DNA of 64,000 bases from Alphaproteobacteria bacterium. Its GTDB lineage: Bacteria; Pseudomonadota; Alphaproteobacteria; RF32; CAG-239. The notes under the pieces are model-generated. The model saw only the letters and a list, made by a program, of their open reading frames with translations. It was not told where the DNA came from and did not search any database. Made by a program: the position numbers and the translations under genes. The stretch lies in NCBI GenBank assembly GCA_017484225.1, contig JAFUTN010000022.1, positions 2,168 through 66,167 on the forward strand. The letters are read 5' to 3'. Positions 44,520 to 63,425 of the stretch are shown in pieces; position 1 is the stretch's first letter, and each line of letters starts with the position of its first letter.

Positions 44520-44592
44520 AATATCATCCCGACAAAATTCTTGTTACTATCACGTAAGAGGATAATATCAGTTTTTTAAGAAATCAAAGGTT

Positions 44593-46411: not shown

Positions 46412-46460
46412 GTATTGATTTGTCGGCTTTTTTGAATTGTCATAAACTGTTTGATAGAGA

Positions 46461-47831: not shown

Positions 47832-47851
47832 TAGGCTGTTTCGGAATTAGC

Positions 47852-47892
47852 GCAAAAAATCCTTTGCTCTGCCGGCAGAGGATTTTTTTTTG
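47852..47892 (+). terminator. intrinsic terminator after tig
   Basis: aaaaaatcc...ctctgccggcagaggattttttttt. Confidence 0.65.
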
Positions 47893-47951
47893 AAATAAGT
47901 ATTGTTTTTTGTCAAAAAAAATAGTAAAATACAGACAAAAGGAGTAGCAAG

Positions 47952-48569: not shown

Positions 48570-48693
48570 AATCAAAAATTTTCAGAGCGGATAATTTTTC
48601 CACTCTTTTTTGTTTTAAACACCTGTCCGAACAGACTTATTGACTTTTCCGGCAACATACCGCAATATGCAAAATGATTTTAAGGAGAAAAAG

Positions 48694-49893
48694 ATGTATA
48701 ATATTCGTAAAGTGACTGAAGATTTGTATTGGATTGGTTCCAGTGACCGCCGTCTGGCTTTGTTTGAAAATGTTTATCCGATTCCGCAAGGAGTTGCTTA
48801 CAACTCTTATGTTTTGACCGATAAAAAAACCGTATTGTTTGACACCGTAGATAGTGCCGTCGCCGCCAGATTCTTTGAAAATTTACGGCAAATTTTGAGT
48901 GGTAAACCGCTTGACTACATGGTTATCAATCACATGGAGCCTGATCATTGTTCCCAAATTGCCAACATCATGAGAGAATATCCGAGTGTAAAAATCGTTT
49001 GCAACACCAAAACCAAACAAATGATTGAACAATTTTTTCCGCAAACATACGCCGAAGACACATTTCTTTTGATAAAAGAAGGAGATACACTTTCAACCGG
49101 AAATCATGAATTAACATTTATCTTTGCCCCGATGGTGCATTGGCCTGAAGTAATGCTGACTTTTGATAAAACAACCGGAACATTGTTTTCCGCTGATGCT
49201 TTCGGCACTTTCGGAGCCTTAAACGGCAATATTTTTGCCGACGAAGTTGATTTTGAAAAAGATTATCTTGATGAAGCCAGACGTTATTATACCAATATTG
49301 TCGGAAAATACGGTCAACAAGTTCAAATGTTACTTAAAAAAGCATCCGCACTGAATATTGAAATGATTTGCCCGCTTCATGGTTTTATCTGGCGACAAAA
49401 CCTGCAATTCATCTTAGAAAAATACAACAAATGGTCGGCCTACGAGCCTGAAGAAAAAGGAGTTGTAATTGCCTACGGTTCAATTTACGGCAACACGGAA
49501 AATGCTGCCGAAATATTGGCATCAAAACTTGCCGAGCAAGGTGTAAAAAACATCAAGATGTATGATGTTTCCGTAACTCACCCGTCTTACATAATTTCCG
49601 AATGTTTCAAATATTCTGACTTAATATTTGCCGCTTCCACATATAATGCCGGAATTTTTGTAAATATGGAAAATCTGCTTCACGACATTATTGCGCACAA
49701 TTTGCAAAACCGAAAAATATTCCTGATTGACAACGGAAGCTGGGCTCCGATTGCCGGCAAGCAAATGCGAGAATTGTTGCAAGGACTTAAAAACTGTAAC
49801 GTTTCAGAAAACACAATTTCAATAAAATCCGCACTGCAAGAAAATCAAATTTCTGCATTAGAACAAATGGCAAAAGAAATTGCTTTACCTTAA
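48694..49893 (+). CDS. fprA: flavodiiron protein (FprA family; MBL + flavodoxin domains)
   Basis: NHMEPDH, PMVHWPE, FSADAFG, CPLHG and YGSIYGNT motifs. Confidence 0.93.
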   Translation: MYNIRKVTEDLYWIGSSDRRLALFENVYPIPQGVAYNSYVLTDKKTVLFDTVDSAVAARFFENLRQILSGKPLDYMVINHMEPDHCSQIANIMREYPSVKIVCNTKTKQMIEQFFPQTYAEDTFLLIKEGDTLSTGNHELTFIFAPMVHWPEVMLTFDKTTGTLFSADAFGTFGALNGNIFADEVDFEKDYLDEARRYYTNIVGKYGQQVQMLLKKASALNIEMICPLHGFIWRQNLQFILEKYNKWSAYEPEEKGVVIAYGSIYGNTENAAEILASKLAEQGVKNIKMYDVSVTHPSYIISECFKYSDLIFAASTYNAGIFVNMENLLHDIIAHNLQNRKIFLIDNGSWAPIAGKQMRELLQGLKNCNVSENTISIKSALQENQISALEQMAKEIALP

Positions 49894-49995
49894 AGCAATT
49901 CTTTTCATTGGCCTGACATAAAACAAGGTTATTTTCTGATGTTTTTTATGGCCACTGTCGGCGTTGCACTGCAATAACCGACAGTGGTTGCGAAT

Positions 49996-51147
49996 TCATT
50001 CAAAAATCCACTCAATCATATTTTCATTATCATCAGATGTAGCCTCATTTGCTTCCTGCAAAGTATAGCGCAATTTCACTACTTCCAGACATTCATCCTG
50101 ATAAATCATATTTTTACTGTTTGGACAAAGAATTGAAGCTATTTCATTATCTTTAGCATAATTATTACAATCAGCAATACTTTGGCATACTTCTTTTTTG
50201 TTAGCCATATCAATCAACAACAAGCATCCTTCCTTAGTTGCACATAACGCACCGCCAGCCATATTTTCTGCCTTTTGGTCCTGATATTGTGCAGCCGCAC
50301 TGATACATTCCTGAGAAACGGAATTTCCGCTTCCGCAAGCTTGATTTTGTAACATATCATCAGGCGAAGCATAGTAATTATCGCCGATTTTATACACACC
50401 GTTTGAGTCTTTGGTATATGTTACCACATTTGAATCAACATAAGAATAACAAGGTGTAGTTTCGGCACAATAAAGTGTGCTTCCGCTATTATTCCTGTCA
50501 AATGGTCCTTTTTCATTATCATCTACATTCGTATGTATAAATGTTTCAATATCCGTAACCGACTCAGAAATAAAAACTTTTGCTAAATTAGTATTATTGA
50601 AAAATGCAGCCCAATCAATACCGGTTACCGAATCCGGAATAATCACTGAAGTTAATTTGGTGTTATGGTCAAAAGCACGATTCCCTATATATTTTACGGT
50701 ATCTCCGATATTTACACTTGTTAGTGATGTATCTTCAAAAGCTTCCGCTCCGATATTTTTAACTCCTTGCACTGAAACCGAAGTATAATCTACTCCCCAA
50801 GGTGTTTTGGTGTGATCATACCAACGCCCGGAATAATCGCGCATTTCTCCGGTTCCGGTAATACTTAAGGCTTTATTTGCCGTGTCTAAACGCGCTGTGC
50901 ATAAATCATTTTCTGTTTTCCCGCAATCCCAACAGTTTTGTTCGCCTGCTTCACAATCTGATTGCGCATGGCTTACTGATATGTTGAGAGATATAAAAAA
51001 AGCCAATATATTCAAAGCACTGAATAATACTTTGAACGTTTCCGCTGCCGTAAACGGCGCACCGACACTGCTTTTACTCAAGCATTGATTCTGTTGTTCT
51101 TTTCTGCTGTTTATTGTCTTATCGCCCGTTTTTGCGTGATGTATCAT
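49996..51147 (-). CDS. BspA-type (LRR_5) leucine-rich repeat exported protein
   Basis: LSITGTGEMRDY, IGDTVKYIGNRAF and IPDSVTGIDWAAF repeats, Cys-rich segment, same C-terminal motif as 36781-37488. Confidence 0.85.
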   Translation of the reverse strand: MIHHAKTGDKTINSRKEQQNQCLSKSSVGAPFTAAETFKVLFSALNILAFFISLNISVSHAQSDCEAGEQNCWDCGKTENDLCTARLDTANKALSITGTGEMRDYSGRWYDHTKTPWGVDYTSVSVQGVKNIGAEAFEDTSLTSVNIGDTVKYIGNRAFDHNTKLTSVIIPDSVTGIDWAAFFNNTNLAKVFISESVTDIETFIHTNVDDNEKGPFDRNNSGSTLYCAETTPCYSYVDSNVVTYTKDSNGVYKIGDNYYASPDDMLQNQACGSGNSVSQECISAAAQYQDQKAENMAGGALCATKEGCLLLIDMANKKEVCQSIADCNNYAKDNEIASILCPNSKNMIYQDECLEVVKLRYTLQEANEATSDDNENMIEWIFE

Positions 51148-51177
51148 ATCAAATTCCTTTCTAAAAAGTTTTCGCTA

Positions 51178-51400
51178 TAAAAAAATCGCCTCGAGAATCA
51201 AAAGGCGATCGGGGAGTTGACAAATCATGTTGACAGTAATGACTATTGTGACCTTTAGCTTAAAAAAATTAAGCTTGAACATACGCCACAATCTCCCCGA
51301 ACATACGCGGGGATTTAAAGATACAAAAAAACAGTATCCGAGGGACACTGATTCATGTACCTCTGTCAACAAAGAGCCTGTCACAGCCCCGAACCTCTCG
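51178..51400 (-). promoter_or_regulatory. structured leader with long-range pairings and a terminator, upstream of LRR gene 2
   Basis: Terminator ATCGCCT-N11-AGGCGAT-T7; complementary pairs tcggggag/ctccccga, gttgacag/ctgtcaac and tgtgac/gtcaca. Confidence 0.6.
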
Positions 51401-51573
51401 GTTCTTCAGATGAAAAACTTTTCATCTGTGTTTAAGGGTATCATAGAGTATTTATTTTGTAAAGGAGAATTAGAAATTGTGCGTTAAAGATGTGATATGG
51501 ATAATTTTAAATACCACCGCACAACCTCATTTTTTCAAGATAGACAACATTTAAGGCATAGCAATAGCTTTGT

Positions 51574-51798
51574 GAAAGTGGTATGCCAACAGATACAATC
51601 GCCGAGCATGAACACATCTCCAAACGAACGATTTATAAATACTTAAACCTCGCTTACCTCTCACCAAAACTCGTCAACCAACTCCTTGATGGAGCTATCA
51701 ATATCCCGCTACAGAAGTTGTTCAAAATGGCTTCTAAGAAACAGGAATTTTTTGCTCAGGATTATCATTTTGAGAAATTAAATCATATGATAAACTAG
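51574..51798 (+). pseudogene. C-terminal fragment of a recombinase-associated phage protein (copy 1)
   Basis: ESGMPTDTIAEHEHISKRTIYKYLNLAYLSPKLVNQLLDG; homologous to 59530-59709. Confidence 0.7.
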
Positions 51799-52570
51799 CC
51801 AAAGATAAATAATGTAAAGCTAAATTTTTATCTAAATCGTGTGCCAACATATGAGCTTTTTCATTACGAAGAAATTGAACCGCAAGATGTAAATAACCAA
51901 CGCCACGAAAAAAATCATATTTTGGACTGTCAATCGAAGCATCTTCTCCAAAGAGTTTTTGATAATATTTCCTGTTTTCAGCATTAAGGTTAAAAACTTC
52001 AGATGCCCTTTCTTTAGTTGTGATTTCTTTTAATTTACATCTAACGATTTTATAAGCTTCCTCTATGGCATGAAAATAGTCTTCATTGTCTAGATATCGT
52101 TTAATATGAGTATATATTTCATCTCTGATTTTAATTTTAAGTTCATTACAATAGGTGGATGTTTGTATTTTATATTCTGCTTTTGAAGTATTTTTATTAT
52201 CCAGTAATTTTGAACCAATTTTTTCTACCTGCTGAATTAAAATTCTTTGTTGATCAAAAAAATTTTTTCCAGCTGTTGTCATCCAAACTGCTTTAACGCC
52301 ACTTGATTGAGATAAATTATCTGCCATCATTTTATTAGCCAATTCTACCAACACTTTTCCAACAGTGGTGTTATCTTCAATATTCCAAAAAGTTCTAAGT
52401 CTATTTGCTTTGGAAGTTCCTTCTTCACAATATTTTTTATCATTAATATTTATTCCAAAAGTAGCAAAAAAATCTGAAAAAGTGTTATCTGAAAAATTTA
52501 AAACGTATCCAGTATGCATATTAAAAGCATTTTCAAGAATTGTTTTATCAGAATAAGATAAATCGCTCAT
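51734..52570 (-). CDS. Abi-like N-terminal domain fused to a TIGR02391/Ymh-type (HEPN-like) domain
   Basis: GYVLNFSDNTF...GTSKANRLRTFW N-terminus; YFHAIEEAYK and FLRNEKAH (RxxxxH) C-terminus. Confidence 0.7.
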   Translation of the reverse strand: MSDLSYSDKTILENAFNMHTGYVLNFSDNTFSDFFATFGININDKKYCEEGTSKANRLRTFWNIEDNTTVGKVLVELANKMMADNLSQSSGVKAVWMTTAGKNFFDQQRILIQQVEKIGSKLLDNKNTSKAEYKIQTSTYCNELKIKIRDEIYTHIKRYLDNEDYFHAIEEAYKIVRCKLKEITTKERASEVFNLNAENRKYYQKLFGEDASIDSPKYDFFRGVGYLHLAVQFLRNEKAHMLAHDLDKNLALHYLSLASLSYDLISQNDNPEQKIPVS

Positions 52571-52587
52571 TGTTTTCCTTTCTCAAG

Positions 52588-52731
52588 TGACTCGTCAAAA
52601 TTCCCTAAAGTATGTAACTGCGGGAAATTTTGCGTTTTTGTTGTTAACTGGAGCTTACCATAGTCACTTTGCAAGAGTCAACCCCTGTAAAAGCCCCGAA
52701 ACACCGCGTATACAAAAAAAGACACCACAAT
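52588..52731 (-). repeat. 144-bp promoter cassette, copy 1
   Basis: Near-identical to 60764-60907; contains TTGACT-N18-TAAGCT on the minus strand. Confidence 0.9.
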
Positions 52732-52768
52732 CAGATATCTTCCTCTATAATAGGCATTTGTTACAAAA

Positions 52769-53608
52769 CTATTTCTTCTCAATCTCTGTCTTTTTGTCCT
52801 TCTTCGGCAGGTAGTTTTCATCGGTAACGACGGATTTGCCGGTTTCTTCTTCATATTTTTCTTTAGCAACTCGGGCAACATTACCACCACGACGAGCGGC
52901 CTTTTTATTTTCCGCCATTCCGGTTGCTCCCATATTTTCTGCCACCTGACGCGTTGAAAGTTCTGCCAAAGCAGTAAAGATAAGTTCTGCCTCGCTCATA
53001 TGGTCACGCAAATTTTGCAATTTCAGACCTTTAAGCTGTTTATGCTCTTTAACTGACAATCCCGACCATTCCTGATGGATAATGTTTGTTAAAATCGCAT
53101 ATTCCTCATCTTTGGTAATTTCGTGATCTTTCCAATAATCCGTCAACTTATTACGAGTTTCTTGCCCCATCATACGTTGCTGGATCCATTTTTCGGAATG
53201 TCCGAGTTTTTGCCAATTCTCGCGAGCACGATCAATACTCATAGCCGGATCAACCGTTTCTTTCATCCGCTCGTAGCCGACTCGGGCAAGCCATTGTTTA
53301 ATCGGTTCAGCTTTTGGACTCGGAACGGATTGAACAATACGCAACATTGTTTCAGCATCGGCAGCATCAGTTTCGCGCATTTTTCCGTCTGATGCCAACA
53401 TTTTCAACCGTACGATTTTTTCGTACGGTTGATCAGAATTAGCTTCTTTATTCAGTTTTCGCTTCAAATCCGACCAATAACGTTTCGGCTCGTTGCTCTC
53501 GCTTAAAATTGCAATTACATCAATTACCGAAAAGTACCAAATATCCTTTTCTTCATCATATACCGAACGGATTTTGCTTTGTTCAAATAACTTAATATCA
53601 TTTTTCAT
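52769..53608 (-). CDS. BRO-N domain protein (antirepressor-like)
   Basis: IRSVYDEEKDIWYFSVIDVIAIL...RYWSDLKRKL, PSPKAEPIKQWLA and NLRDHMSEAELIF motifs. Confidence 0.88.
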   Translation of the reverse strand: MKNDIKLFEQSKIRSVYDEEKDIWYFSVIDVIAILSESNEPKRYWSDLKRKLNKEANSDQPYEKIVRLKMLASDGKMRETDAADAETMLRIVQSVPSPKAEPIKQWLARVGYERMKETVDPAMSIDRARENWQKLGHSEKWIQQRMMGQETRNKLTDYWKDHEITKDEEYAILTNIIHQEWSGLSVKEHKQLKGLKLQNLRDHMSEAELIFTALAELSTRQVAENMGATGMAENKKAARRGGNVARVAKEKYEEETGKSVVTDENYLPKKDKKTEIEKK

Positions 53609-53733
53609 GCTTATTTCCTTAAGTTTTCTTTATTCAATTTTACAAGTTTTGCTATAAGAATCAAGGAAACCTTAGGACTCATAAACTAAAAAATCGCAAT
53701 AACCGCTCAAATTCAGAGATAGCAAAATGCTAT

Positions 53734-54231
53734 TTATTTCTTTCGGACTAATTTGCAGTAAACTTGTGACAACAATTCAGCATCAAGCAAAGCTCCATGA
53801 ACATCTCTTTTGTTGGTATTAATGCCAAACCTTTCACATAACGCATCCAAATTACACCGCATGTTAGGAAACGCAGCTTTTGCCAGTTTCAGGGTATCTG
53901 TCATTTTATTTGTCAATTCAAAACCTAACTCGTGATTTAAGAAACTTAAATCAAAGGATATGTTATGTGCAATTAATTCTTTACCATCAATAAACTTTAG
54001 AAAATCATCCTTTATTTCATCAAAAGTCGGAAAATCTTTTAAGTAGTCCGTCGTTAAACCATGTATTTGCACAACCTCATCAGGTACAATTTGTTCCGGA
54101 TTGATATAAGTATGAAAGACGGCTCCGGTCGGTTGATTATTTTCATCAATTTCAATAGCGCCTATTTCAACCAATTTACAATTTTTAGGATCAAATCCCG
54201 TGGTTTCGGTATCAAAAATGACTTTATTCAT
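53734..54231 (-). CDS. DnaQ-like DEDDh 3'-5' exonuclease, catalytic domain only, intact motifs
   Basis: ExoI FDTETTG, ExoII HNISFD, ExoIII HGALLD; 165 aa with no epsilon C-terminal tail. Confidence 0.92.
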   Translation of the reverse strand: MNKVIFDTETTGFDPKNCKLVEIGAIEIDENNQPTGAVFHTYINPEQIVPDEVVQIHGLTTDYLKDFPTFDEIKDDFLKFIDGKELIAHNISFDLSFLNHELGFELTNKMTDTLKLAKAAFPNMRCNLDALCERFGINTNKRDVHGALLDAELLSQVYCKLVRKK

Positions 54232-54271
54232 ATATGCCTCCTATTAAATTATATTAATTATAAAAGACATA

Positions 54272-54290
54272 TCCGACAGATTCGGTCGCA
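54272..54290 (-). promoter_or_regulatory. 19-bp operator-like box A
   Basis: TGCGACCGAATCTGTCGGA, followed 9 nt later by TATAAT; 40 nt from the exonuclease ATG. Confidence 0.7.
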
Positions 54291-54311
54291 ATAAAACAAT
54301 ATACACAGAAA

Positions 54312-54503
54312 TTATTTCAAAGCATCCACGACTTTAATAAGTGTTGAAATTTGGTCATCTGATAATTTTTTAATACTGGAAATCAGTGCAGTTGCTTCAA
54401 CTAAAATATTACAACGCTCTGCTAAAACTTCCTGCGTTATCTTTGCTTTTTGACGTATAGCTTTTATTTTTAACCCGATTTTATGCTTCATGTTTCGCTC
54501 CAT
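54312..54503 (-). pseudogene. internally deleted XRE-family HTH remnant
   Basis: IGLKIKAIRQKAKITQEVLAERCNI start, but the recognition-helix region is missing. Confidence 0.55.
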
Positions 54504-54590
54504 TTATAGAAGTTAAACTTAAAGCTTTAGCTTGAAAATGAAGCAAAACTTTTATAATACTATTGTAAATACAAGTTTCACTTAATAAGA

Positions 54591-54609
54591 TGCGACCGAA
54601 TATGTCGCA
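54591..54609 (+). promoter_or_regulatory. 19-bp palindromic operator-like box B
   Basis: TGCGAC-CGAATAT-GTCGCA, extendable to GATGCGAC-N7-GTCGCATC; 46 nt from the nuclease ATG. Confidence 0.75.
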
Positions 54610-54655
54610 TCAGCATGTTAAATAGAAGTTAATATTCAATTTTAGGAGAAAATTT

Positions 54656-55561
54656 ATGACCAGAGCTTTAGATGAAAAATTTTTCAAACAATTTATAAAA
54701 GACGGCGAATATTATAATATTACATGCCTTATTAGAGATGATAGCAATTTAATGATGTGTTTACGTGGCAGTTACGTTACAATTTATTACAAAAGCCTGC
54801 AAATTTTAAGAATTAACAAAAACGGAACATTTGAAGTTGATAAAAATTATGGTATCAATCCAAATGACTATAAAGGTAATTGGGGTTTATATTTTAAGGA
54901 TGCAAAAAAAGCCATAGATAGCCACAGTCAAATTGAAAAGTTAGAAAAAGAAGTTCAACAAGCATTAGTTAAAGAAAACAATTGCAACTCTATTTGTAAC
55001 GAAACAGATTATTTTATTTTAGACATTGAATACACTCAAAGTGAATTTGATGGACGTTTTGATGCATTAGCGGTTTATTGGCCCAAAAACAAACGAAAAA
55101 ATGGCTCAAACCTCCGTTTAGCATTTGTTGAAGTAAAAGCTGGAGGAAAAGCCATTTCTGGAACAGCAGGCGTATCTGCACACTACGAATCTGTTATCAA
55201 ATTTATGGGTAATCTGAAAAAAGATAATAATAAAGAAATTTTTTTCAAAGATTTGGAAGATGTTATAGATCAACAACGTCAACTCGGTTTATGGAAATAT
55301 GAAAACCCACACAAAATAACTTTTTCGCGCACAGAAAAACCACAACTCATCTTTGTCTTGGTTAATTATAATCCGAATTCTAAACTCATAAATGATGAAA
55401 TTAAAAACATTGGTGAGCTTGTTGAAAAATATAAAAATGAGATACCTTTTGAAACTCTTTTTGCAACATCATCGTTTATGGGATATGGCTTATATGACAG
55501 CTGTATGATGTCCTTAGAATATGTACAAAAAAGATTATGCAGAGGCAATCATGAAGGCTAG
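54656..55561 (+). CDS. predicted PD-(D/E)XK nuclease
   Basis: ILDIEY...GRFDALAV...LAFVEVK pattern. Confidence 0.7.
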   Translation: MTRALDEKFFKQFIKDGEYYNITCLIRDDSNLMMCLRGSYVTIYYKSLQILRINKNGTFEVDKNYGINPNDYKGNWGLYFKDAKKAIDSHSQIEKLEKEVQQALVKENNCNSICNETDYFILDIEYTQSEFDGRFDALAVYWPKNKRKNGSNLRLAFVEVKAGGKAISGTAGVSAHYESVIKFMGNLKKDNNKEIFFKDLEDVIDQQRQLGLWKYENPHKITFSRTEKPQLIFVLVNYNPNSKLINDEIKNIGELVEKYKNEIPFETLFATSSFMGYGLYDSCMMSLEYVQKRLCRGNHEG

Positions 55562-56747
55562 TATTAAAAGAGGGGCAAATCAAATCGGCGGATCGACCGT
55601 GGAATTAACCGCCAACTCCGGTGAGCGTTTGATTATTGATTTAGGACTACCTCTGGATGCCGAAGAAAACACCGCAGATTTATTACCCGATATTAAGGGA
55701 CTAAAAAATAAAACCGATGATTTGCTGGGGATTCTTATTTCTCACCCTCATCAAGACCACTATGGCTTGGGTTTGCACATTGATAACAGCATCCCGATTT
55801 ATATGAGCAAAGCAACGGCCGATATTATGGATGTATGCGTTAAGCACAATCTTCCCAATGCCTTTGCTTTCGGTAATATACATATTTTTGATGATAAATC
55901 TTCTTTTTCCATCGGTCCGTTTACCGTAACACCATATCCGGTTGACCATTCCGCATACGGAGCATACGCCTTTTTGATAGAGGCCGACGGTAAACGCTTG
56001 TTTTACAGCGGGGACTTTCGTGCCCATGGGCGCAAGGGCAAATTATTTGACGGTTTTATCAAAAATCATCCCAAAGATATTGATGTTTTGATGATGGAGG
56101 GATCTTGCCTTGGTCGTGAACAGTCAACAAAATATCCGTCTGAAACATCTCTTGAAACAGAATTTGAAAAGGTCTTTAAGGAAACCAAAGGTGTAGCCTT
56201 TATTCAAAGTTCCTCACAAAATATTGACCGTATCGTTACCATTTACAGGGCAGCAAAGAAAAGCGGCAGGACCTTAGTCATAAGCGGTTATACAGGGCAC
56301 GTCTTAATGGTGCTAAATAACGAGCATTTACCGAGTTTCAAATGGCCGGACGTTAAAAAGTTTGCAACGGACACTACGGCACCGCATCATATAACCAAAG
56401 AGGTAATAGAACAAAATCCGTCTAAATATGTGATTGTGTTCGGCGGAATGATTTTCAATATCTTAAAAAGCAGTTCGCTTGTTAACGAAAATGCTTCCTT
56501 TATCTATTCTATGTGGGACGGCTACAAAGAGCTGTATCAAGAACGCTTAGATTTAATGAAAGAAAAAAATGTGCCGATGTATAATATTCATACTTCCGGC
56601 CACGCGGATATCCCGACATTGCAAAAATTTGCTTTGGCCATAAATCCTAAAAAAATTGTACCGATACATACTTTCTTTCCCGAGCAATTTAAGGAACTGT
56701 TCAACAACGTAGAATTGCATAATGATAACGAAACTTTTGAAATTTAG
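55551..56747 (+). CDS. MBL-fold beta-CASP ribonuclease (RNase J-like)
   Basis: QIGG, HPHQDH, VDHS, SGDFR, MMEG, HTSGHAD and VPIHT motifs; ATG 55551 overlaps the upstream stop by 11 nt. Confidence 0.9.
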   Translation: MKASIKRGANQIGGSTVELTANSGERLIIDLGLPLDAEENTADLLPDIKGLKNKTDDLLGILISHPHQDHYGLGLHIDNSIPIYMSKATADIMDVCVKHNLPNAFAFGNIHIFDDKSSFSIGPFTVTPYPVDHSAYGAYAFLIEADGKRLFYSGDFRAHGRKGKLFDGFIKNHPKDIDVLMMEGSCLGREQSTKYPSETSLETEFEKVFKETKGVAFIQSSSQNIDRIVTIYRAAKKSGRTLVISGYTGHVLMVLNNEHLPSFKWPDVKKFATDTTAPHHITKEVIEQNPSKYVIVFGGMIFNILKSSSLVNENASFIYSMWDGYKELYQERLDLMKEKNVPMYNIHTSGHADIPTLQKFALAINPKKIVPIHTFFPEQFKELFNNVELHNDNETFEI

Positions 56748-56755
56748 GATGTAAT

Positions 56756-57745
56756 ATGCCAGTAAATCATTCCGCCAGACTTGAAAAAGTAGAAAATATA
56801 ATCAGGCTTATCAATCGTATGGCAGGTTCTACCGAAGGTGTAAGCATTAATGACATTATGGTAGAATATAAAGTCTGTCGCCGTACTGCCGAAAGAATGA
56901 TGAATATTATCAGGGCGCTTTATCCAGCACAACTGGAAGAAGTCGATAACGGAGAAAACTATAAATCATATCGTTTGCAAGAGCTTTATCGCCAGGGACC
57001 GATAAAATTAGCGCCTGAAGAAATTTCCTGTCTATCTCAAGCAATAAAATTAGCTCATCGGGGAAAAAGAGAGGAATTAGCTGATGAATTACAGCACCTA
57101 GAATACCGCATAAAATCATTTTGCAAGGAAAAAGACAAGTATAACGTTGAAAATATAGCGGAAATGGAAGATATAAGCATGTCTGCCGGTCCAAAATATA
57201 TAATCAATCAAGAAATTTTAGCAGACCTTCGCAATGCCATCACAAATTGAAATGAAGTAATTATAACCTATAAACTGCGCGCAAATGGCGAAACTAAGCA
57301 CTTTCGGATACAACCTTATGGTATTTTATATGGCTCCAGACCTTATTTAGTAGCTTATTATGAGACAGATAAAGATTACCGTTATTTTTGTCTTTCTAAT
57401 ATTATTGCCATAGAGCTAACCGATATCAAATTCAGCCGCAATGAAAAATTTTCTCTGCAAAAATATGCAGAGCAGTCTTTCGGCAGTTTTCAGGAAAAAC
57501 CTTACAATGTTATTTGGAAAGTCAACAAAAACCGAGCAGATGATGCGGAACATTATTTATTTCATCCGACTCAAACTATAGAAAAGCAAAAAGACGGCAG
57601 TTTAATTGTTCGTTTCACCGCCGGTGGCTTAAAAGAAATGTGCTGGCATCTCTTTACTTGGGAGGGAGATATTGAGATACTGGAGCCGCAAGTATTAAAG
57701 GAAATGATGTGCGATTTGCTAAACAAAGCAAAAAATATGCTATAA
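56756..57745 (+). pseudogene. HTH-WYL-WCX transcriptional regulator interrupted by one in-frame TGA (57248-57250)
   Basis: The same frame continues after the TGA as NEVIITYK...QPYGILYGSRPYLVAY...FHPTQ...GGLKEMCWHLFTWEG to TAA 57745 (330 codons including stops). Confidence 0.9.
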
Positions 57746-58231
57746 TGAATTTAGTTTAGCGTAAAGTTGCACACACATGTCACACTCTTCTTCCTTAAAA
57801 TTGAAAAAATCAGAATCTTTTAATTTAAACACATGCATCAGATGAGTAACATAATTTTCTCTTAAATTTGCTTTTTTATTTACCCAACTCTTCAAATCAA
57901 TAAAATGATTAGACAGCGGTTGTTCCAACTCTCGTTCCAATACTGCTTGGGTAGATAGCGCATCATAACAAACAATTTCTTTATTGCCGATAAAAGCTAA
58001 AAAATCTTCCTTTATTTCGGATATCGTTCTTGATTCATTGATTTCATCTGCCGTGAGTCCATAAAATAATTCTATAGAATCAGGCAATTCCGCTTGCGGA
58101 TTAATAGGCGTATAAAATCGTTTGCCGGTTAAGTGTCCTGGTTCATTAAATTCCGCCGCATGGAGAGATAAAATCTTACCTTGAGTAATATTTTTACCGG
58201 TTGTTTTAATAACTAATGCAATTTCACTCAT
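57740..58231 (-). CDS. DnaQ-like exonuclease-fold protein, catalytic residues lost
   Basis: Aligns with 53734-54231 (TTG...INP...GLT...FL.FI...E.V), but ExoI DTE reads VIK and there is no ExoIII H..D. Confidence 0.75.
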   Translation of the reverse strand: MSEIALVIKTTGKNITQGKILSLHAAEFNEPGHLTGKRFYTPINPQAELPDSIELFYGLTADEINESRTISEIKEDFLAFIGNKEIVCYDALSTQAVLERELEQPLSNHFIDLKSWVNKKANLRENYVTHLMHVFKLKDSDFFNFKEEECDMCVQLYAKLNSL

Positions 58232-58233
58232 GG

Positions 58234-58737
58234 TTATTTCTCCTTTATTGTTAATTCTTTATACATTTTTGCCATCATATGACATCTTGAAAGAGGTCTT
58301 AGGTGCCACATTGTATCAATACCTTTGATATCAAACCTATTTAACAAATCAAAAAATGAAGGAGCTTTAACGTTTGGATTTTTATTTGCCAGCTCAGAAA
58401 TAATCGTTGTTTCATTAGGTAAAGCAAATCCTAACGCCATATATATAAAATTAAGGCTTTGTGCTTCATCAAAAACAACGAGTTCTTTATTCTCTAAAAA
58501 GCAAAGGAAGTTGTTTTCTAATTTGGAGAAAGTCGGCTTATCTTTAACAGTGGCCTGCGTAATACCGGTAATTGTTGAAATTTGTCGCGGTATACGACAT
58601 TGAGGATTAATCAACGAGCAAAACACATTTCCGGTAAGACGGCAATATTCATCTATTTCAATGGCCGAAAGTGATATGATTTTATCTTTTTCAAAATTTT
58701 TCCCTGTTGTTTCAATGTCTATAACAATCTTTCGCAT
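58234..58737 (-). CDS. DnaQ-like exonuclease-fold protein, partly degenerate
   Basis: ExoI IDIETTG retained; HN..FD and H.A..D replaced. Confidence 0.8.
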   Translation of the reverse strand: MRKIVIDIETTGKNFEKDKIISLSAIEIDEYCRLTGNVFCSLINPQCRIPRQISTITGITQATVKDKPTFSKLENNFLCFLENKELVVFDEAQSLNFIYMALGFALPNETTIISELANKNPNVKAPSFFDLLNRFDIKGIDTMWHLRPLSRCHMMAKMYKELTIKEK

Positions 58738-58781
58738 AACTTCTCCTTTTTTGATATATATATCTGGCTATAAAGCAGTGC

Positions 58782-58800
58782 AATGACTGTTTTGGTCGCT
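58782..58800 (-). promoter_or_regulatory. degenerate 19-bp operator-like box C
   Basis: AGCGACCAAAACAGTCATT, followed 9 nt later by TATAGC; 44 nt from the ATG. Confidence 0.5.
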
Positions 58801-58955
58801 AAACTTAAAAATATACATAAAAATATACATATAAGACTTAAAAACACGTCGAGAAAGGAGGTAATAACAGTAAAGTTCAGACAACAAAAAAGAGATAAAG
58901 AAACATAATTTTCTTATCTCCGAAGAAGTGCTAATATAGCACTCTGAACAAGCTA

Positions 58956-59474
58956 ATGGGCGAGTATGCTAATCTGAAATCATTAAAAGCATACACAAAC
59001 AATGCAAAAACGCATAATGAAAAACAGCTGCAAGCACTTGCCGCATCTATCAGACAATTTGGCTTTAACAATCCGGTCTTGATTGATGAAAATAATGAAA
59101 TTATTGCCGAAGCAGAGGAAAATTGGACGATATATGATCCGATTATCGGTACAAACCGCAAAATCATACGTCATATAGGAGATTTACTACATCCGGTGCG
59201 AGAAAATAGAGAAACAGTCTTGGAATTGCAACAATCTCTCGGTGAATTCGCATTTGCCGGACAATATCAACAAAATCCGGCTCCAATCAGCGGTGGCATC
59301 GTAAAAAAAGAATGGTTACATTACTACAATGAAGTACCAAATTTGCAAAAGATCGTTCTTTCTTGGGATACTGCCGGAAAAGAAGGAAGCAACAATGCCT
59401 ATTCGGCCTGTATTGTTGTGGGAACCGAATATGACAAAAGTATCCAGAATGCAAGGAACATCCCTTTTAATTGA
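58956..59474 (+). pseudogene. deletion chimera: ParB-like N-terminus fused to a terminase large-subunit fragment
   Basis: LKAYTNNAKTH...IRQFGFNNPVLIDENNEIIA, then LHPVRE...FAGQYQQNP...SWDTAGK...YSAC. Confidence 0.75.
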
Positions 59475-59709
59475 ACAAGGAAAATTGTTGTTTGCCTTTG
59501 CCTACGCATGGCGATATAAAAAACTTTACGAAAGCGGAATGCCAACCGATGACATTGCCAAACAGGAACATATCTCTAAGCGCACAATTTATAAATACTT
59601 AAATCTTGCCTACCTCTCACCCAAACTTGTTAACCAACTCCTTGATGGAACAATGAGTATTTCCCTGCAGAAATTGTTTGAGATGTCGGCTAAACGTGAT
59701 CAGCTTTAA
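59440..59709 (+). pseudogene. C-terminal fragment of a recombinase-associated phage protein (copy 2)
   Basis: LLFAFAYAWRYKKLYESG...YLNLAYLSPKLVNQLLDG. Confidence 0.7.
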
Positions 59710-59718
59710 GGAAAAACA

Positions 59719-60741
59719 TTACTTTTTTAAATTATTCTGGATTAAAAATAACTTAGTTCTAGCATCATTCACTAAATCTGCAAGTTCACTTTCTCCGACA
59801 TTAACATTATTTTCACATAAAATTGGAAACAAAATTCCTTTAACTCTAGGATTCTTATTGTAAAATGTTTTTAGTCCTTGTAATGACTTAACAATACTAT
59901 CTTTAGCATTTGTACTTGATATATATTTGGCCTCAATTAAAAAATTATTAAAAGATAAATCTGCTACTTTTTTATTTCCATCAATTACTATTATTGCATC
60001 TTGATCTTTTAAAATACTTATAGATGGTATCCAAGGTCTCAAAATGCAGTATATCAAATTTTGAAAATCGTACTCATTTTCAATCTTAATAGTACTTTCA
60101 TTAAAATTTTTAGCTTTTCCTGCTGAGTGAAAAGTACTAAAAAAGGTTTTTTCAAATGGTACTTTGATTATTTTGGCGATTTTTTCTAAAATGGCCGTAT
60201 TCTCTGCTCCCAATAAAGTATTTGGAATATCATAATCTGAACAGTACTTATCAATACATTTTAAATGATTTTTTATACTTGATATTTCGGGCATGGCAGA
60301 CCCCAAAAATATCGCATCGTTATAAACCGCTATGTTCTTAAAATCATTAATATCTTTTGTAAACTTTTTAGACACACCATCCCAAAGAAGCACTGCTTGT
60401 AACTGTTTAACAATATTTTTTTTCCTAAAAATGCCATTAGGTCGAATATTAATATAACCTCCTGTTTTAATACTTTTGGCAAAAGAATTTATTGATTTTG
60501 TTTCAAAAATATCTAAAGGATTGTTGGTATCCTCAACATATTCAGCTTTAGTTGATAAAACTGTTGAAATTTCAGAAACAACAAGGATATCAATATCTGA
60601 GGAACGCGAATCTGTTTTAAATGCTCTAGAGCCAAATATATAAATTTTATTGATTTGAGGTGCAATTTTAATTATTTTATTTATTTCTTCTTCCAAATCA
60701 ATAAGTTTAATATTGCCTAATTTATTGATAGTTCTATTCAT
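59719..60741 (-). CDS. nucleotidyltransferase (MNT/Pol-beta type) fused to a DpnII/MboI-like PD-(D/E)XK nuclease domain
   Basis: IYIFGSRA...SDIDILV N-terminus; NEYDFQNLIYCILRP...ADL...IEAK C-terminus. Confidence 0.72.
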   Translation of the reverse strand: MNRTINKLGNIKLIDLEEEINKIIKIAPQINKIYIFGSRAFKTDSRSSDIDILVVSEISTVLSTKAEYVEDTNNPLDIFETKSINSFAKSIKTGGYINIRPNGIFRKKNIVKQLQAVLLWDGVSKKFTKDINDFKNIAVYNDAIFLGSAMPEISSIKNHLKCIDKYCSDYDIPNTLLGAENTAILEKIAKIIKVPFEKTFFSTFHSAGKAKNFNESTIKIENEYDFQNLIYCILRPWIPSISILKDQDAIIVIDGNKKVADLSFNNFLIEAKYISSTNAKDSIVKSLQGLKTFYNKNPRVKGILFPILCENNVNVGESELADLVNDARTKLFLIQNNLKK

Positions 60742-60763
60742 AATATCGCTTTCCTCTCTCTAT

Positions 60764-60907
60764 TGACTCGTCAAAATTCTCCAAAGTATGTAACTGCCGG
60801 AAATTTTGCGTTTTTGCTGTTAACAGGAGCTTACCATAGTCACTTTTGGCTTGTCAACCCCCGTAGAAGCCCCGAAACACCGCGTATACAAAAAAAGACA
60901 CCACAAT
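60764..60907 (-). repeat. 144-bp promoter cassette, copy 2
   Basis: TTGACA-N18-TAAGCT on the minus strand; near-identical to 52588-52731. Confidence 0.9.
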
Positions 60908-60928
60908 TTGGTGTCTTTTCAATTAAAA

Positions 60929-61121
60929 TGGCGGTGAGATTGAGATAGGGATTGGCTACGCCGCCACTGCGCTCATCGCCTAAAGGCGACCGCGATACTC
61001 TCGTCTCGCTTTCGCTTGTGGTCAAACCCTATTTTCTAGGGTTCAAATTCCAACTCTCCACATCATCAACAAAAAAAACACCCTAACGGGCGTTTTTTTG
61101 TTGTTGGCGGTGAGATAGGGA
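60929..61121 (-). repeat. two orphan tRNA 3'-end copies (probably Ser type; att-like) flanking a palindromic spacer
   Basis: Minus strand TCCCTATCTCACCGCCA (61121-61105) and CCCTATCTCAATCTCACCGCCA (60950-60929), each followed by a terminator; no tRNA 5' half nearby. Confidence 0.7.
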
Positions 61122-61566
61122 AACACACCCAACAATATTTAGAATATATTGTTTTTACACAATAAAAATTTTAGTATTTTTAAACCATATTTTTCTTAAA
61201 ATTACAATATTTTGCTACAAGCGGCAAGAATATTTTTTGAGTTTACCCGAAGATTTTTAAAATGATTTTTTTTTGAATCTTTTTGAATAAATATTTTTGT
61301 AATGAAAAAAAACTCTATGTGAAAAACTTTATGATTAAAAACTCTATTATCAAAAATTTTTAACTTAAAACCCTTGATATTATTATGTTGAAGTAGTTGA
61401 TGATGACTGGGATTAACCATCATCAACTGTTAATCCCAAACAGTACTGTTATGTTTATGAGGCAGTTGAGGTGATTCCCCTGCTGATTAAACATTGAGAT
61501 TAAATACTTAAAAAATACAAGCAGAATAGTTCTGCTATTCTTAATTATTACCAAAAGGATTTAGAA

Positions 61567-62061
61567 ATGAAACTATTTATGACATTTAACCCACATATTG
61601 AAAATTACTCTATGAAGAAGTTATTGAATGATTTTAGATATGCTTTACAAAAGTATTACAGAAAAGAATTGGGAAGAAGATATTACAAGCATATCAATAA
61701 TCAATATACGATAGCAATTTTTGAAGAAAATGGAAAGAAGTTCTTTGAAAAAATGGATGAAGCAACACATCTGATTAAGTACATTGAGAAAGATATTGAG
61801 TACAAGAGAGAACCACACCTCCACATTATTGCTGATATTCCCACACATACAGAAAAAGATTTTTTTAATTCTTTAAAAGATACTTTGAAAATCATTTATC
61901 CGTCATTAACTACCGATTACCAGTTGATTGGTAATGATGTAGATGAAAAAAATGTTTGGAACTACTGCTCAAAAGAAGATGGAAAAATTTTAAGCAAAAA
62001 TGATTTATGCGAAAAAAGTGCTATCAACATTCCTGCTGATAGCACTTTTTCACCCAAATAA
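61567..62061 (+). CDS. small HUH endonuclease (rolling-circle Rep-like)
   Basis: Motif I-like FMTFN, motif II PHLHII, motif III NYCSKE. Confidence 0.7.
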   Translation: MKLFMTFNPHIENYSMKKLLNDFRYALQKYYRKELGRRYYKHINNQYTIAIFEENGKKFFEKMDEATHLIKYIEKDIEYKREPHLHIIADIPTHTEKDFFNSLKDTLKIIYPSLTTDYQLIGNDVDEKNVWNYCSKEDGKILSKNDLCEKSAINIPADSTFSPK

Positions 62062-62303
62062 GTTGGACTACTTCTCATACTGATTGTAGTTGTAGTAACA
62101 CAGCAACGGGAGCAGCATTATCAGCAATTGTCAATTTATTTTATTACAGCATCAGGATAACTAAAATGCTACCGATATTTTTTGTCGGTAGCGTGAGTAT
62201 AAAATCAACATCACCAATAATTACTGGCATTATTATTTATCATAATTTCCAATCCATTATTAGATAAATACTTATAGAAACAAACTATAAGGAGTATGAA
62301 ATT

Positions 62304-62732
62304 ATGCTTAAAAAAAGAAAAATACCTCAAAACACCCGAAGAATAGATGAGTTAAATACAGCCATTGTATTAAGCGATATCAACACTATCAGAGAACTAT
62401 TGATTAACAATATTGATGTGAATATGCCTGACCGTAATGGGGTTTATCCGATTATGTTTGCTGTTGAATATGGCAACGCCAATGCTTTGATATCACTTTT
62501 AAGGCATGGTGCTAATCCTAATGTTATTGATAAACGCAACGGATACACACCTTTGATGAAAGCATTATCAGGCAAATACATTCCGAATAGATATTTGATA
62601 GTTATGTTGTTGTTAAAAAACGGAGCTGATGTAAATATCATTTCCAACCATAACAAAACGGCTTTATATCTGGCGAAAACCAACCAACCTCGCTATGTCC
62701 GCTTGTTAAAAAGATTTGGAGCAGAGTTTTGA
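62304..62732 (+). CDS. ankyrin repeat protein
   Basis: NGVYPIMFAVEYGN, HGANPN, GYTPLMKA and NGADVN repeats. Confidence 0.92.
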   Translation: MLKKRKIPQNTRRIDELNTAIVLSDINTIRELLINNIDVNMPDRNGVYPIMFAVEYGNANALISLLRHGANPNVIDKRNGYTPLMKALSGKYIPNRYLIVMLLLKNGADVNIISNHNKTALYLAKTNQPRYVRLLKRFGAEF

Positions 62733-62740
62733 GAGTGATT

Positions 62741-62920
62741 TTAATCTTTCTTTTTTAATGCCACATATGCCTCGTATAAACGCCCTGCGGCATTTAGGAT
62801 TCTTCGTCCTTGTTCCTTGTTTTCCTCAAATGAATACAGCATGTTCATTAATTTATCGTGTATTCTCTTAATAGAATCGGCATACTTCTGTAATTCTTCT
62901 TCAATAGTATTTTTATTCAT
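62741..62920 (-). CDS. small hypothetical protein (59 aa)
   Basis: My translation MNKNTIEEELQKYADSIKRIHDKL...ALKKKD*; the ATG overlaps the end of the HAD gene. Confidence 0.55.
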   Translation of the reverse strand: MNKNTIEEELQKYADSIKRIHDKLMNMLYSFEENKEQGRRILNAAGRLYEAYVALKKKD

Positions 62921-63422
62921 TGTTAAATCCTTTAATATTGATATTTATCAGTTTTTTCACATCTTTCAGGTTATAAAAAATGTATTTTACTCCGATATTT
63001 TTCAGGCGTTTTATCCAATCTGAATTTTCATAACGCTCACGGCTTAAAAATGAAATCGGCAGACATCCGGCCTTAATTGCTCCTTTCATAGCCGTATAAG
63101 AATTATCTATAACAATCGCATTTTTCGGTAGTTCATTCATTTTTTGTAAGGCAAGCAAAAATATATCCGGAGAACCTTTACCCGAACCGGCCATATCAAT
63201 GGTAAAGATATTTTGCTCGTTAAAAATATCGGTTAACCCGCATAATTTGATTTTCTCAAGAGTTTGTGCCAATGTGCCGTTGGTGGTTATACAGTGTTTC
63301 AAATCAGGCAGAGTTAAAATTTCACGCACACCATCGGTAAGTGGATAACCTTTTTCTGCCCAATCATCGGAAGTTTGTGCCAATACTCCGTCAAAATCCC
63401 ATATTATAAAATTCAAAAACAT
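62913..63422 (-). CDS. HAD-family phosphatase-like protein with little or no cap domain
   Basis: WDFDGVLA motif I, ITTNG, GKGSPDIF, VIDNS. Confidence 0.8.
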   Translation of the reverse strand: MFLNFIIWDFDGVLAQTSDDWAEKGYPLTDGVREILTLPDLKHCITTNGTLAQTLEKIKLCGLTDIFNEQNIFTIDMAGSGKGSPDIFLLALQKMNELPKNAIVIDNSYTAMKGAIKAGCLPISFLSRERYENSDWIKRLKNIGVKYIFYNLKDVKKLININIKGFNNE

Positions 63423-63425
63423 ATT

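Follow-up and report, generated by a model that had tools for sequence, protein, structure and literature searches.

Two homologous modules with exchangeable, defence-like cargo in a tandem island linked to tRNA-Ser in a gut alphaproteobacterium

In this study, we analyzed a stretch of 64,000 nucleotides from an alphaproteobacterial genome (hereafter the window) and found two homologous modules in which the same cassette and the same recombinase-gene tail enclose entirely different genes. Probably, this region is a composite island produced by successive site-specific insertions at a single tRNA-Ser gene, and the two modules would be the tRNA-proximal ends of two related large serine recombinase (LSR) elements with a swappable cargo slot.

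First, repeat finding in the window paired the cassettes at 52569-52741 and 60745-60917 (173 nt, 87% identity) and the tails at 51558-51737 and 59514-59693 (180 nt, 77% identity); with blastn, the cassettes aligned over 158 nt (90%, E 1e-55) and the tails over 155 nt (79%, E 2e-31). The whole 1.48-Mb genome contains only these two cassette copies. The cargo between cassette and tail is unrelated in the two copies (a Hypoth_Ymh protein in one, a Pol-beta nucleotidyltransferase (NTase) with a DpnII/MboI-like nuclease in the other). This confirmed the two modules with a common cassette and swapped cargo that a preliminary description of the region had proposed, whose coordinates fall inside the repeats. 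The promoter-like box TTGACW-N18-TAAGCT lies on the minus strand, and the cassette is therefore upstream of both minus-strand cargo genes. The features of the two modules are as follows.

51558..51737, plus strand: LSR gene 1 remnant, last ~60 codons only (HTH and ...LSPKLVNQLLDG... tail); ORF 51583-51798
51734..52570, minus strand: cargo 1, intact 278-aa Hypoth_Ymh protein with Abi-like C-terminal domain (Pfam PF09509, 4.5e-9)
52569..52741, minus strand: cassette 1, with -35 at 52681-52676, -10 at 52657-52652 and a purine-rich Shine-Dalgarno region
About 52593-52634, minus strand: leader hairpin of cassette 1, loop GTTACATAC at 52618-52610
52714-52731, minus strand: distal half of the terminator hairpin in cassette 1 (attR remnant), only half kept
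59514..59693, plus strand: LSR gene 2 remnant, last ~70 codons, inside ORF 59329-59709
59719..60741, minus strand: cargo 2, intact 340-aa Pol-beta NTase fused to a DpnII/MboI-like restriction-endonuclease domain (Pfam PF18765, 1.3e-9; PF18742, 5.8e-15; PADLOC Aga_Helical-REase, 1.4e-6, and also PDC-S09 and PDC-M05A NTase matches)
60745..60917, minus strand: cassette 2, with -35 at 60857-60852, TGn-extended -10 at 60833-60828 and a Shine-Dalgarno region
About 60769-60811, minus strand: leader hairpin of cassette 2, loop at 60795-60787
60890..60919, minus strand: complete terminator hairpin of tRNA-Ser with T-run (AAAAGACACC-loop-GGTGTCTTTTTT), putative LSR attachment site (attL)

Copy 2 indeed abuts a terminator and a tRNA 3' end (hairpin 60890-60919, tRNA-Ser fragment 60929-60951), and copy 1 retains half of that terminator (52714-52731), as the preliminary description had it. 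We do not count as a gene the antisense ORF that spans the cassette (60763-60948), since it extends across the terminator and, in relatives, also across the tRNA.

Second, a single pattern scan, for which a 20-base IUPAC pattern was derived from the leader core, located the cassette core at 79 loci (66 distinct) in uncultured gut or rumen Alphaproteobacteria; one match, in Marinomonas (L077), was a chance hit and was dropped. Blastn with the 173-nt cassette as query, run against the 50 species of the genus, was too insensitive and returned 5 genomes only. The usual order at these loci is tRNA-Ser, terminator hairpin, TTGACW-N18-TAAGCT, a leader of ~75 nt with a stable hairpin, a variable slot and a convergent LSR gene. 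In the elements, the box reads TTGACW-N18-TGnTAAGCT, and the leader has a Shine-Dalgarno region. The box may act as a promoter; a simple sigma-70 consensus scan did not call it, as the -10 TAAGCT fails, and a search for RNA runs found none holding the region. Folding of individual leaders gave a mean z of -3.0, with z < -1.5 in 91% of them. RNAalifold on 35 leaders yielded neither a consensus structure nor covariation support for the hairpin, because two leader subfamilies pair in different registers, and Rfam cmscan (E<=1, 44000-64000) had no match in either cassette. The order of promoter cassette followed by gene, as previously described, holds for both window copies, but of the 27 slot clusters in which one main ORF is clear, 7 (about a quarter of types) have the cargo antisense to the cassette, so that a promoter cannot be the sole reason for cassette conservation.

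The slot itself is 0.17-2.5 kb long and falls into 33 clusters over the cassette loci. Its cargo includes a retron (RT_VI, 2e-75, with HTH), a PD-T4-6 kinase (7e-56), AbiH (1.7e-48), the methyl-directed restriction enzyme mREase_II (1.9e-19), HNH, Fic, Ymh and NTase-REase families. By plain count, about 10-13 of the 33 clusters (about a third) matched known defence or toxin families, and about 20 cargo types (two thirds without annotation) matched no defence model. The expectation that the cassette would precede diverse genes in relatives was thus borne out, with known defence genes well represented among them. Many of the cargo genes are short enough to synthesise, single-gene cargo being common.

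Both edges of the slot are sharp, and more than 25 unrelated types of cargo have them at identical nucleotide positions: on the left, the sequence breaks after AGTCAMTTSAG of the leader, and on the right, within the last few LSR codons, after ...EQEK. Such constant edges, together with the conserved promoter-like box ahead of the slot, might suggest integron-like site-specific exchange, in which the LSR or another recombinase cuts both at the leader edge, beside the palindrome TTGACGAGTCAA, and at the 3' end of the LSR gene, placing promoterless gene cassettes behind a fixed promoter. We regard this as improbable, since the boundary sequences inspected contain no common recombination site beyond the left and right edges, cargo occurs in both orientations, and the edges fall where functional constraint on the sequence ends, as would be expected of homologous recombination. 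Furthermore, the leaders are A/B mosaics of the two subfamilies, which points to crossovers inside the cassette.

Cargo and backbone are decoupled. The LSR 3' ends of loci L018 and L055 are 99.7% identical and their cargo is different, and Ymh cargo occurs on backbones whose LSRs are just 67% identical. The Ymh cargo of the window is also present in L015, L024 and L054 (dN/dS about 0.1), and its module with the cassette (1006 nt) is 96.6% identical to that of L015, with otherwise unrelated flanks. Conserved flanks, diverse cargo and this decoupling support the view of the slot as a defence hotspot in the P2/P4 sense. It would most likely be an expression site for defence genes that benefit host and element, because many cargo types are recognisable as anti-phage or toxin-like genes; an anti-phage function of the cargo is predicted on the same grounds. 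Cargo made up mainly of addiction or stabilisation modules (toxins) or other morons, serving element maintenance or competition and not anti-phage defence of the host, seems quite improbable. Toxin activity is possible for Fic, HNH, kinase and NTase-nuclease proteins, and such a role would suit the numerous single genes and the types lacking a defence-model match, but retron VI, AbiH, PD-T4-6 and mREase_II matched strongly and belong to anti-phage families that are established or catalogued. In addition, both window copies are decayed relics in which the two cargo genes and cassettes are intact, which argues that the host benefits and not the element.

The tails in the window are the last ~60-70 codons of an LSR gene that is intact in relatives (536-544 aa); remnant 1 aligns with residues 474-537 of the intact LSRs of L009 and L012 at 78-80% identity (tblastn). 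An intact relative of 543 aa matches PF00239 (Resolvase, 2.8e-40), PF07508 (Recombinase, 9.9e-12) and HTH_7, and the relatives have the Resolvase and Recombinase domains, C-terminal extension and length (>450 aa) of the LSR class. The tail had therefore been correctly linked to a recombinase, which proved to be a serine and not a tyrosine enzyme. Where the flank was long enough, 35 of 42 loci had an LSR downstream of the cassette (24 full length), and 59 of 70 had an intact tRNA-Ser at a distance of 134 nt upstream from the leader core. Hence, the proposed association with a tRNA gene held, but the attachment site appears to be the hairpin just downstream of tRNA-Ser and not the tRNA 3' end. 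In G079, G075 and G085, complete elements lie between direct repeats of this hairpin; the repeats are 48-65 bp long, which exceeds typical LSR att sites. At the attR of the window, homology begins in the hairpin loop, compatible with crossover there. A tRNA-Leu (46327-46411) was rejected as the att donor, as the tRNA fragments in the window match tRNA-Ser(cga) on contig C31.

The complete element of G079 comprises 10.2 kb between 48-bp direct repeats (tRNA end and hairpin), with its cassette only inside attL. In both G079 and G075 the sequence past attR has no cassette, and the attR side of G075 resembles tRNA-Ser and hairpin directly before host genes. These observations bear on the alternative that the cassette is host intergenic sequence downstream of tRNA-Ser and the variable genes a chromosomal defence island neighbouring the integrated elements. 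The cassette does adjoin tRNA-Ser, and solo cassettes without an LSR occur beside Cas9 (L017/L023) or housekeeping genes (L063); nevertheless, cassettes of complete elements lie inside the att repeats, tandem arrays (window, G085) duplicate the cassette along with the element, and cassette and LSR occur together at most loci, as counted above. We therefore consider this alternative highly improbable.

The genes of the complete 10.2-kb element include LSR, DUF2924, ParB-methylase (ParB-MTase), DUF5681, TerL, XRE and a TerS-like gene; the TerL of L012 matched a PHROG family at 9e-102. No integrase besides the LSR was noticed among its 12 genes, 10 of which were scanned against Pfam. A full prophage was rejected: virion genes were sought, and no capsid, portal or tail gene was matched by family or recognisable after TerL in any locus or complete element. 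With TerS-like and TerL genes and none for capsid, portal or tail, the element resembles a phage satellite, and, read from genes alone, these elements share the satellite attributes of small size, integration and packaging genes without virion structural genes. Satellite behaviour thus seems plausible. A search of IMG/VR with the LSR gave one distant contig (LSR 58% identical) with no clear virion genes. A broader and rather doubtful possibility is that the 10-14-kb LSR elements are an undescribed phage-satellite family of gut Alphaproteobacteria with their own TerS-like gene and TerL and without virion genes, that the hairpin leader is a regulatory switch (RNA or operator) coupling cargo expression to infection or induction or controlling the convergent LSR, and that the ~20 unannotated cargo families are new anti-phage systems.

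In the window, these elements form part of a tandem array. Its order is tRNA-Ser(cga) (on the adjoining contig), tyrosine-integrase element, mini remnant, decayed LSR element 2 and LSR element 1 remnant, with the following features.

52732..60928, minus strand: LSR element 2, decayed, 8.2 kb (Pfam; synteny with L012)
52769-53608, minus strand: Bro-N, LSR element 2 (Pfam)
53734-54231, minus strand: DnaQ-like exonuclease, LSR element 2 (Pfam)
54312-54503, minus strand: XRE remnant, LSR element 2 (Pfam)
54656-55561, plus strand: 301-aa unknown, LSR element 2
55521-56747, plus strand: MBL/beta-CASP, LSR element 2 (Pfam)
56756-57250: stop-interrupted WYL regulator, LSR element 2 (Pfam)
57740-58737, minus strand: two degenerate DnaQ-like genes, LSR element 2 (Pfam)
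58947-59547: fused ParB-methylase and TerL fragments, LSR element 2 (Pfam)
59494-59706: LSR tail, LSR element 2 (followed in the element by cargo 2 and cassette 2)
60929..60951, minus strand: tRNA-Ser 3'-end fragment with 6-nt duplication
60952..61104, minus strand: mini remnant between two tRNA 3'-end fragments, with a conserved ~115-nt element and a second hairpin-plus-T-run
61105..61121, minus strand: 17 nt identical to the 3' end of tRNA-Ser(cga), distal att of the third element (tyrosine integrase)

Compared with LSR element 2, L012 has 2.6 and 2.3 kb more, corresponding to intact ParB-MTase, TerL and LSR. The third element spans from 61105 past the end of the window to the intact tRNA-Ser on contig C31, whose start overlaps the end of contig C22 and where a tyrosine integrase lies beside tRNA-Ser(cga). 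The mini remnant has relatives at C6:5526-5606, L010 and L011; examination of its ~115-nt element (60952-61062) as a possible disrupted tRNA or noncoding RNA gave no explanation. Similar arrays were observed independently in G085, where two cassettes lie 16 kb apart, and in L048, which has three att copies, and together with the third element at the same tRNA they bear out the tandem accretion suggested earlier. In Logan unitigs from three runs, depth was equal across the region and breaks occurred only at a 41-nt exact repeat (52691-52731 / 60867-60907). This fits the tandem arrangement; unitigs alone would also be compatible with an 8.2-kb circle plus a single-cassette chromosome.

We infer the following course of events, including the mechanism of recombination and the order of insertion. 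LSR elements of about 10-14 kb would integrate into the terminator hairpin that directly follows tRNA-Ser, each bringing at its tRNA-proximal end its own promoter-like box, leader, accessory-gene slot and convergent LSR. Since all family members share both flanks, homologous recombination between co-resident or incoming elements could swap the slot contents, and cargo turnover would thus be much faster than that of the backbone; tandem arrays like that of the window would favour such exchange. Element 1 (cassette 1, Ymh, LSR) was probably resident first, element 2 would then have inserted at the hairpin on the tRNA side, and the tyrosine-integrase element and the small remnant would have been added later beside the tRNA. 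Both LSR elements have decayed: of the LSR only the tail is left, TerL and ParB-MTase persist as fragments and WYL is interrupted.

P2-like prophages and P4-like satellites are known to carry defence hotspots (Rousset et al. 2022, PMC9122126; Moura de Sousa et al. 2026, PMC13586616). The family described here likewise consists of small integrative elements in which conserved genes enclose a fixed locus. There, unrelated anti-phage systems replace one another so rapidly that cargo differs between near-identical backbones; cargo also occurs in other contexts, and many of its genes are uncharacterized. Constant edges, the 33 clusters and the near-identical LSRs with different cargo uphold the earlier analogy of a fixed slot for interchangeable defence genes. 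The P4 hotspot also lies near the integrase. In contrast to P2/P4, the backbone here is unrelated (LSR with DUF2924, ParB-methylase, DUF5681, TerL and XRE, with no P4 marker genes seen), the integrase is a serine and not a tyrosine enzyme and appears to use the hairpin behind tRNA-Ser as its insertion site, the slot follows a promoter-like box and a hairpin leader that are strongly conserved, and the hosts are uncultured gut Alphaproteobacteria. The integron platform, with its fixed Pc promoter and promoterless cassettes, is similar in having interchangeable single genes behind one conserved promoter-like sequence; however, no IntI-type tyrosine integrase or attI/attC-like repeats were noticed in the element genes and boundary sequences inspected, there is one slot and no array, cargo takes either orientation, and homologous recombination in the flanks accounts best for the exchange. 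Tycheposons (Hackl et al.) reportedly integrate repeatedly at one tRNA gene, where mobility genes decay and cargo is left in tandem, and are said to use tyrosine recombinases and to carry mostly nutrient-acquisition cargo. They share tRNA-linked tandem accretion and decay with the island in the window, which differs in its LSR, defence-like cargo and defined slot. Finally, PLE satellites of Vibrio cholerae use a large serine recombinase as integrase. They and TerS-carrying PICI-type satellites (about 10-18 kb, with LSR or other integrase, regulators and packaging genes and without capsid or tail genes) resemble our elements in size and gene content, and here both a TerS-like gene and TerL are present.

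Defence hotspots of mobile elements are among the most productive routes to new anti-phage systems, and most of those mapped come from Enterobacteria, Vibrio, Pseudomonas and a few Firmicutes. Our comparison supports considering this locus a new example of a P2/P4-type defence hotspot, in uncultured gut Alphaproteobacteria. The ~31-nt leader core beside tRNA-Ser, together with the LSR 3' end, provides a sequence handle on a hotspot in a gut lineage with small genomes; one pattern scan gave about 30 cargo types, two thirds of them without annotation and many of them testable single genes. An oddity is an LSR with long, near-identical att copies of the hairpin after a tRNA gene. The locus also traces, stage by stage, how decay of an element leaves its cargo, probably expressed, behind as putative chromosomal defence genes.

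A repeat search of positions 48000-64000 revealed two pairs of direct repeats, 52569-52741 versus 60745-60917 (173 nt, 87% identity) and 51558-51737 versus 59514-59693 (180 nt, 77% identity). By blastn, the first pair, which comprises a promoter-like box (TTGACW-N18-TAAGCT) and a leader and is referred to as the cassette, aligned over 158 nt at 90% identity, and the second, referred to as the tail, over 155 nt at 79%. On the minus strand, the cassettes read TTGACA/T, an 18-nt spacer ending in TGG, TAAGCT, a leader of ~75 nt, a purine-rich ribosome-binding region and ATG. The slot between tail and cassette holds a cargo gene, which in both modules has the cassette on its upstream side:

51734-52570, minus strand: cargo 1, intact, 278 aa, Pfam Hypoth_Ymh (4.5e-9)
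59719-60741, minus strand: cargo 2, intact, 340 aa, Polbeta/NTP_transf_2 N-terminus and DpnII-MboI restriction-endonuclease domain (5.8e-15); Aga_Helical-REase-like and NTase matches in PADLOC

Between tail and cassette, the two cargo genes showed no relation to each other. Thus, the claim of the preliminary description that two modules share one cassette and carry different cargo was borne out, and its coordinates and description were correct. No further cassette copy was found in the genome itself (1.48 Mb, 57 contigs). Each tail codes for the final 60-70 residues (HTH, ...LSPKLVNQLLDG...) of a protein of which the tails alone survive in the window. The intact protein of a relative (L009:6691-8322, 543 aa) contained Resolvase (2.8e-40), Recombinase (9.9e-12) and HTH_7 domains, which identifies it as a large serine recombinase (LSR). 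The tail, previously described as recombinase-associated, is therefore indeed a recombinase 3' end, and its type is corrected to the serine family.

With blastn, the cassette also turned up in four further species of the genus. A search with a 20-base IUPAC pattern of the leader core over metagenome contigs and species-representative MAGs matched 44 metagenome contigs (human gut, rumen and others) and 29 contigs of the MAGs. All matched hosts were uncultured Alphaproteobacteria, with titles such as 'uncultured Azospirillum sp.', 'Rhodospirillales' and 'Alphaproteobacteria bacterium'; a match in Marinomonas was attributed to chance and left out of the set. In total, 79 cassette loci (66 distinct) were collected. 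In 59 of the 70 loci with enough upstream sequence, the leader core was preceded by an intact tRNA-Ser whose end lay 134 nt away; ARAGORN read its anticodon as cga in 30 loci and as gga in 29. Elements of this family may insert at two tRNA-Ser isoacceptor genes with a common downstream hairpin. Of the 42 loci with 3 kb or more of downstream sequence, 35 had an LSR gene convergent on the cassette, full length in 24. The conserved order was tRNA-Ser, terminator hairpin, G+C-rich box, TTGACW-N18-TAAGCT, leader, slot and LSR. In relatives, a type II CRISPR-Cas9 locus is the native neighbour of the tRNA-Ser attachment (att) site: in L017 and L023 a lone cassette has cas9 200 nt downstream, and in G075:C1 the locus lies beyond the distal att.

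Complete elements were delimited by the hairpin repeats. In the relative G079, the element spans 10.2 kb between 48-bp direct repeats. Each repeat comprises the final 4 nt of the tRNA, the hairpin and CGTATC, and host genes lie past the distal one. Since the cassette occurs at the tRNA-proximal end only, inside the repeats, it is element-borne. The G079 element contains:

Genes: cargo AbiH, LSR, DUF2924, ParB-N6/N4 methylase, DUF5681 (TerS-like), TerL
Also: XRE repressor, DUF6150, small membrane protein, EEP-family nuclease, two more genes

Neither in this element nor at any other locus did a family match or a recognisable gene point to a portal, capsid or tail protein; thus, judged by gene content, the family seems closer to a satellite or minimal packaging-competent island than to a prophage. 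A second arrangement, seen in L012 and G075 and shared by element 2 of the window (52732-60928), has an inverted TerL block, an operon (298-aa protein, MBL-fold protein and WYL regulator) and DnaQ-like exonucleases. At the tRNA-distal end in L041 (11430-13326) and G085:C12, a Dcm-type cytosine methyltransferase, recognised by visible motifs, lies beside a large HATPase-like protein, which could represent a second variable, defence-like region.

The att identity extended over 48-65 bp, which is longer than is typical of LSRs. At the distal junction in the window, homology begins in the hairpin loop (GATATCTG/ATTGTGGTGTC...), and the arm on the element side mirrors the hairpin arm imperfectly; this sequence pattern would fit a crossover in the loop. 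The tRNA-linked att site proposed previously does adjoin tRNA-Ser, but it is probably the hairpin after the tRNA.

The slots ranged from 173 bp to 2.5 kb and fell into 33 sequence clusters. Besides the window's own Ymh and NTase-REase genes, the recognised cargo was as follows:

Retron type VI reverse transcriptase (RT_VI 2e-75), plus HTH protein and membrane protein
PD-T4-6 Ser/Thr kinase (7e-56)
AbiH (1.7e-48)
Methyl-directed restriction enzyme (mREase_II 1.9e-19)
HNH endonuclease
Two Fic proteins
Weak matches: LmuA-like, DUF559, HSDR_N

About 20 of the 33 clusters gave no match. Thus, the genes downstream of the cassette in related genomes, which had been suggested as a check, comprise many cargo types, with known defence families among them.

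The slot edges were sharp. On the left, conservation ended after AGTCA(C/A)TT(C/G)AG at the same place in all clusters, and on the right in the final 2-8 LSR codons, after ...EQEK, again in all clusters. L018 and L055 had LSR 3' ends 99.7% identical and different cargo; the Ymh cargo occurred on backbones with LSRs just 67% identical and with both leader subfamilies, and some leaders were A/B mosaics. The Ymh-cassette module of the window was 96.6% identical over 1006 nt to L015, a contig otherwise unrelated, and Ymh was under purifying selection (dN/dS ~0.1). Homologous recombination in the conserved flanks would be the simplest mechanism of cargo exchange. A site-specific mechanism is a less likely alternative; the cargo ends showed no common site. 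The decoupling of cargo from backbone is the pattern described for P2/P4 hotspots (PMC9122126, PMC13586616).

The cassette had no Rfam match. Each leader folded into a hairpin of ~40 nt with loop GTTACATAC; as the search pattern prescribed both this loop and the AGTCA box, their invariance carries no evidential weight. The leader hairpins were much more stable than their dinucleotide shuffles, with a mean z of -3.0 and 91% of 55 distinct leaders below -1.5. RNAalifold found neither a consensus structure nor covariation support, because the two leader subfamilies pair in different registers. Conservation suggests that the cassette holds a promoter; a simple sigma-70 scan did not call one, and a search of RNA runs returned none that contains the region. 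The proposal that this promoter drives the cargo gene suits the 20 clusters with a sense main ORF, starting 15-27 nt past the conserved core, but not the seven with an antisense main ORF, AbiH and the retron among them. With a quarter of the cargo types in antisense, the cassette may serve an additional purpose, and we speculate that it controls the convergent LSR or acts as an operator.

The end of the window's contig (C22) overlaps the start of contig C31 by ~130 nt, and the array reads, from the tRNA:

C31:5636-5727: intact tRNA-Ser(cga)
Window 61122-64000 and beyond (C22:63289-69886 and C31:1-5635): ~12-kb tyrosine-integrase element
150-bp remnant, then second tRNA 3' fragment (60929-60951)
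Down to Bro (52769): complete hairpin, cassette 2, NTase-REase, decayed element 2
Half hairpin, cassette 1, Ymh, LSR tail 1
Host LRR-protein genes

The tyrosine-integrase element, whose distal end is a 17-nt tRNA 3'-end repeat (61105-61121), encodes a 706-aa integrase (Phage_integrase and DUF6538). It also codes for an AAA_21/AAA_15 ATPase and a partner of 207 aa, which may form a defence pair, as well as for two small serine resolvases and an ankyrin protein, and it contains numerous small ORFs. Element 2 no longer has its LSR, its ParB-MTase and TerL fragments are fused and its WYL gene is interrupted; both cargo genes of the array are intact. ORF 58956-59474 (within 58947-59547) joins the ParB-DNA methylase N-terminus to internal TerL fragments and marks where ~2.6 kb was deleted relative to L012. 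Three DnaQ-like exonuclease genes (53734-54231; 57740-58737) bracket the operon at 54656-57742 (301-aa unknown protein, MBL/beta-CASP protein and WYL regulator), which is kept in the element body of L012 and G075; in tblastn, the match of the full-length L012 WYL protein continued beyond the end of ORF 56756-57250.

In Logan unitigs of three runs from a single study, the whole region was covered at equal depth, with breaks only at a 41-nt exact repeat common to both cassettes, across which we infer the tandem links. Given that the element is decayed and without an LSR, and that the depth ratio was 1:1 in three samples, a tandem arrangement is the natural reading. Similar tandem arrays occurred in G085 and L048, with the older cassette and cargo pushed away from the tRNA. 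The cassette, with 79 loci, is not confined to this window, the equal unitig depth would fit a genuine tandem array, and the 33 slot clusters and the two further arrays support the proposed exchangeable cargo slot in tRNA-targeting elements that accrete in tandem.

Other repeated sequences were observed nearby. A conserved G+C-rich element of ~115 nt lies between tRNA 3'-end-like fragments at 60952-61062, and also occurs in L010, L011:17318-17436 and G000 C6:5526-5606, in the last of these after a different tRNA and ending in that tRNA's own 3' sequence. It had no Rfam match; it may be an ncRNA or the minimal remains of another family of tRNA-targeting elements. Beyond tail 1, the 3' end of the LRR (BspA-like) gene 49996-51147 (minus strand) contains a ~76-nt sequence (49995-50070) with ~90 copies across the genome's contigs, and a ~230-nt stretch upstream of the gene (51177-51409) has ~20 copies in the genome; the pattern suggests a large family of surface-protein genes whose ends and leaders are identical at the DNA level.

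Conceptually, the locus adds one more case to the known defence hotspots of mobile elements and would surprise a specialist only moderately. What is new is the element family in an uncultured gut lineage and a simple sequence handle for harvesting its cargo, with ~20 unannotated slot genes as candidate defence genes.
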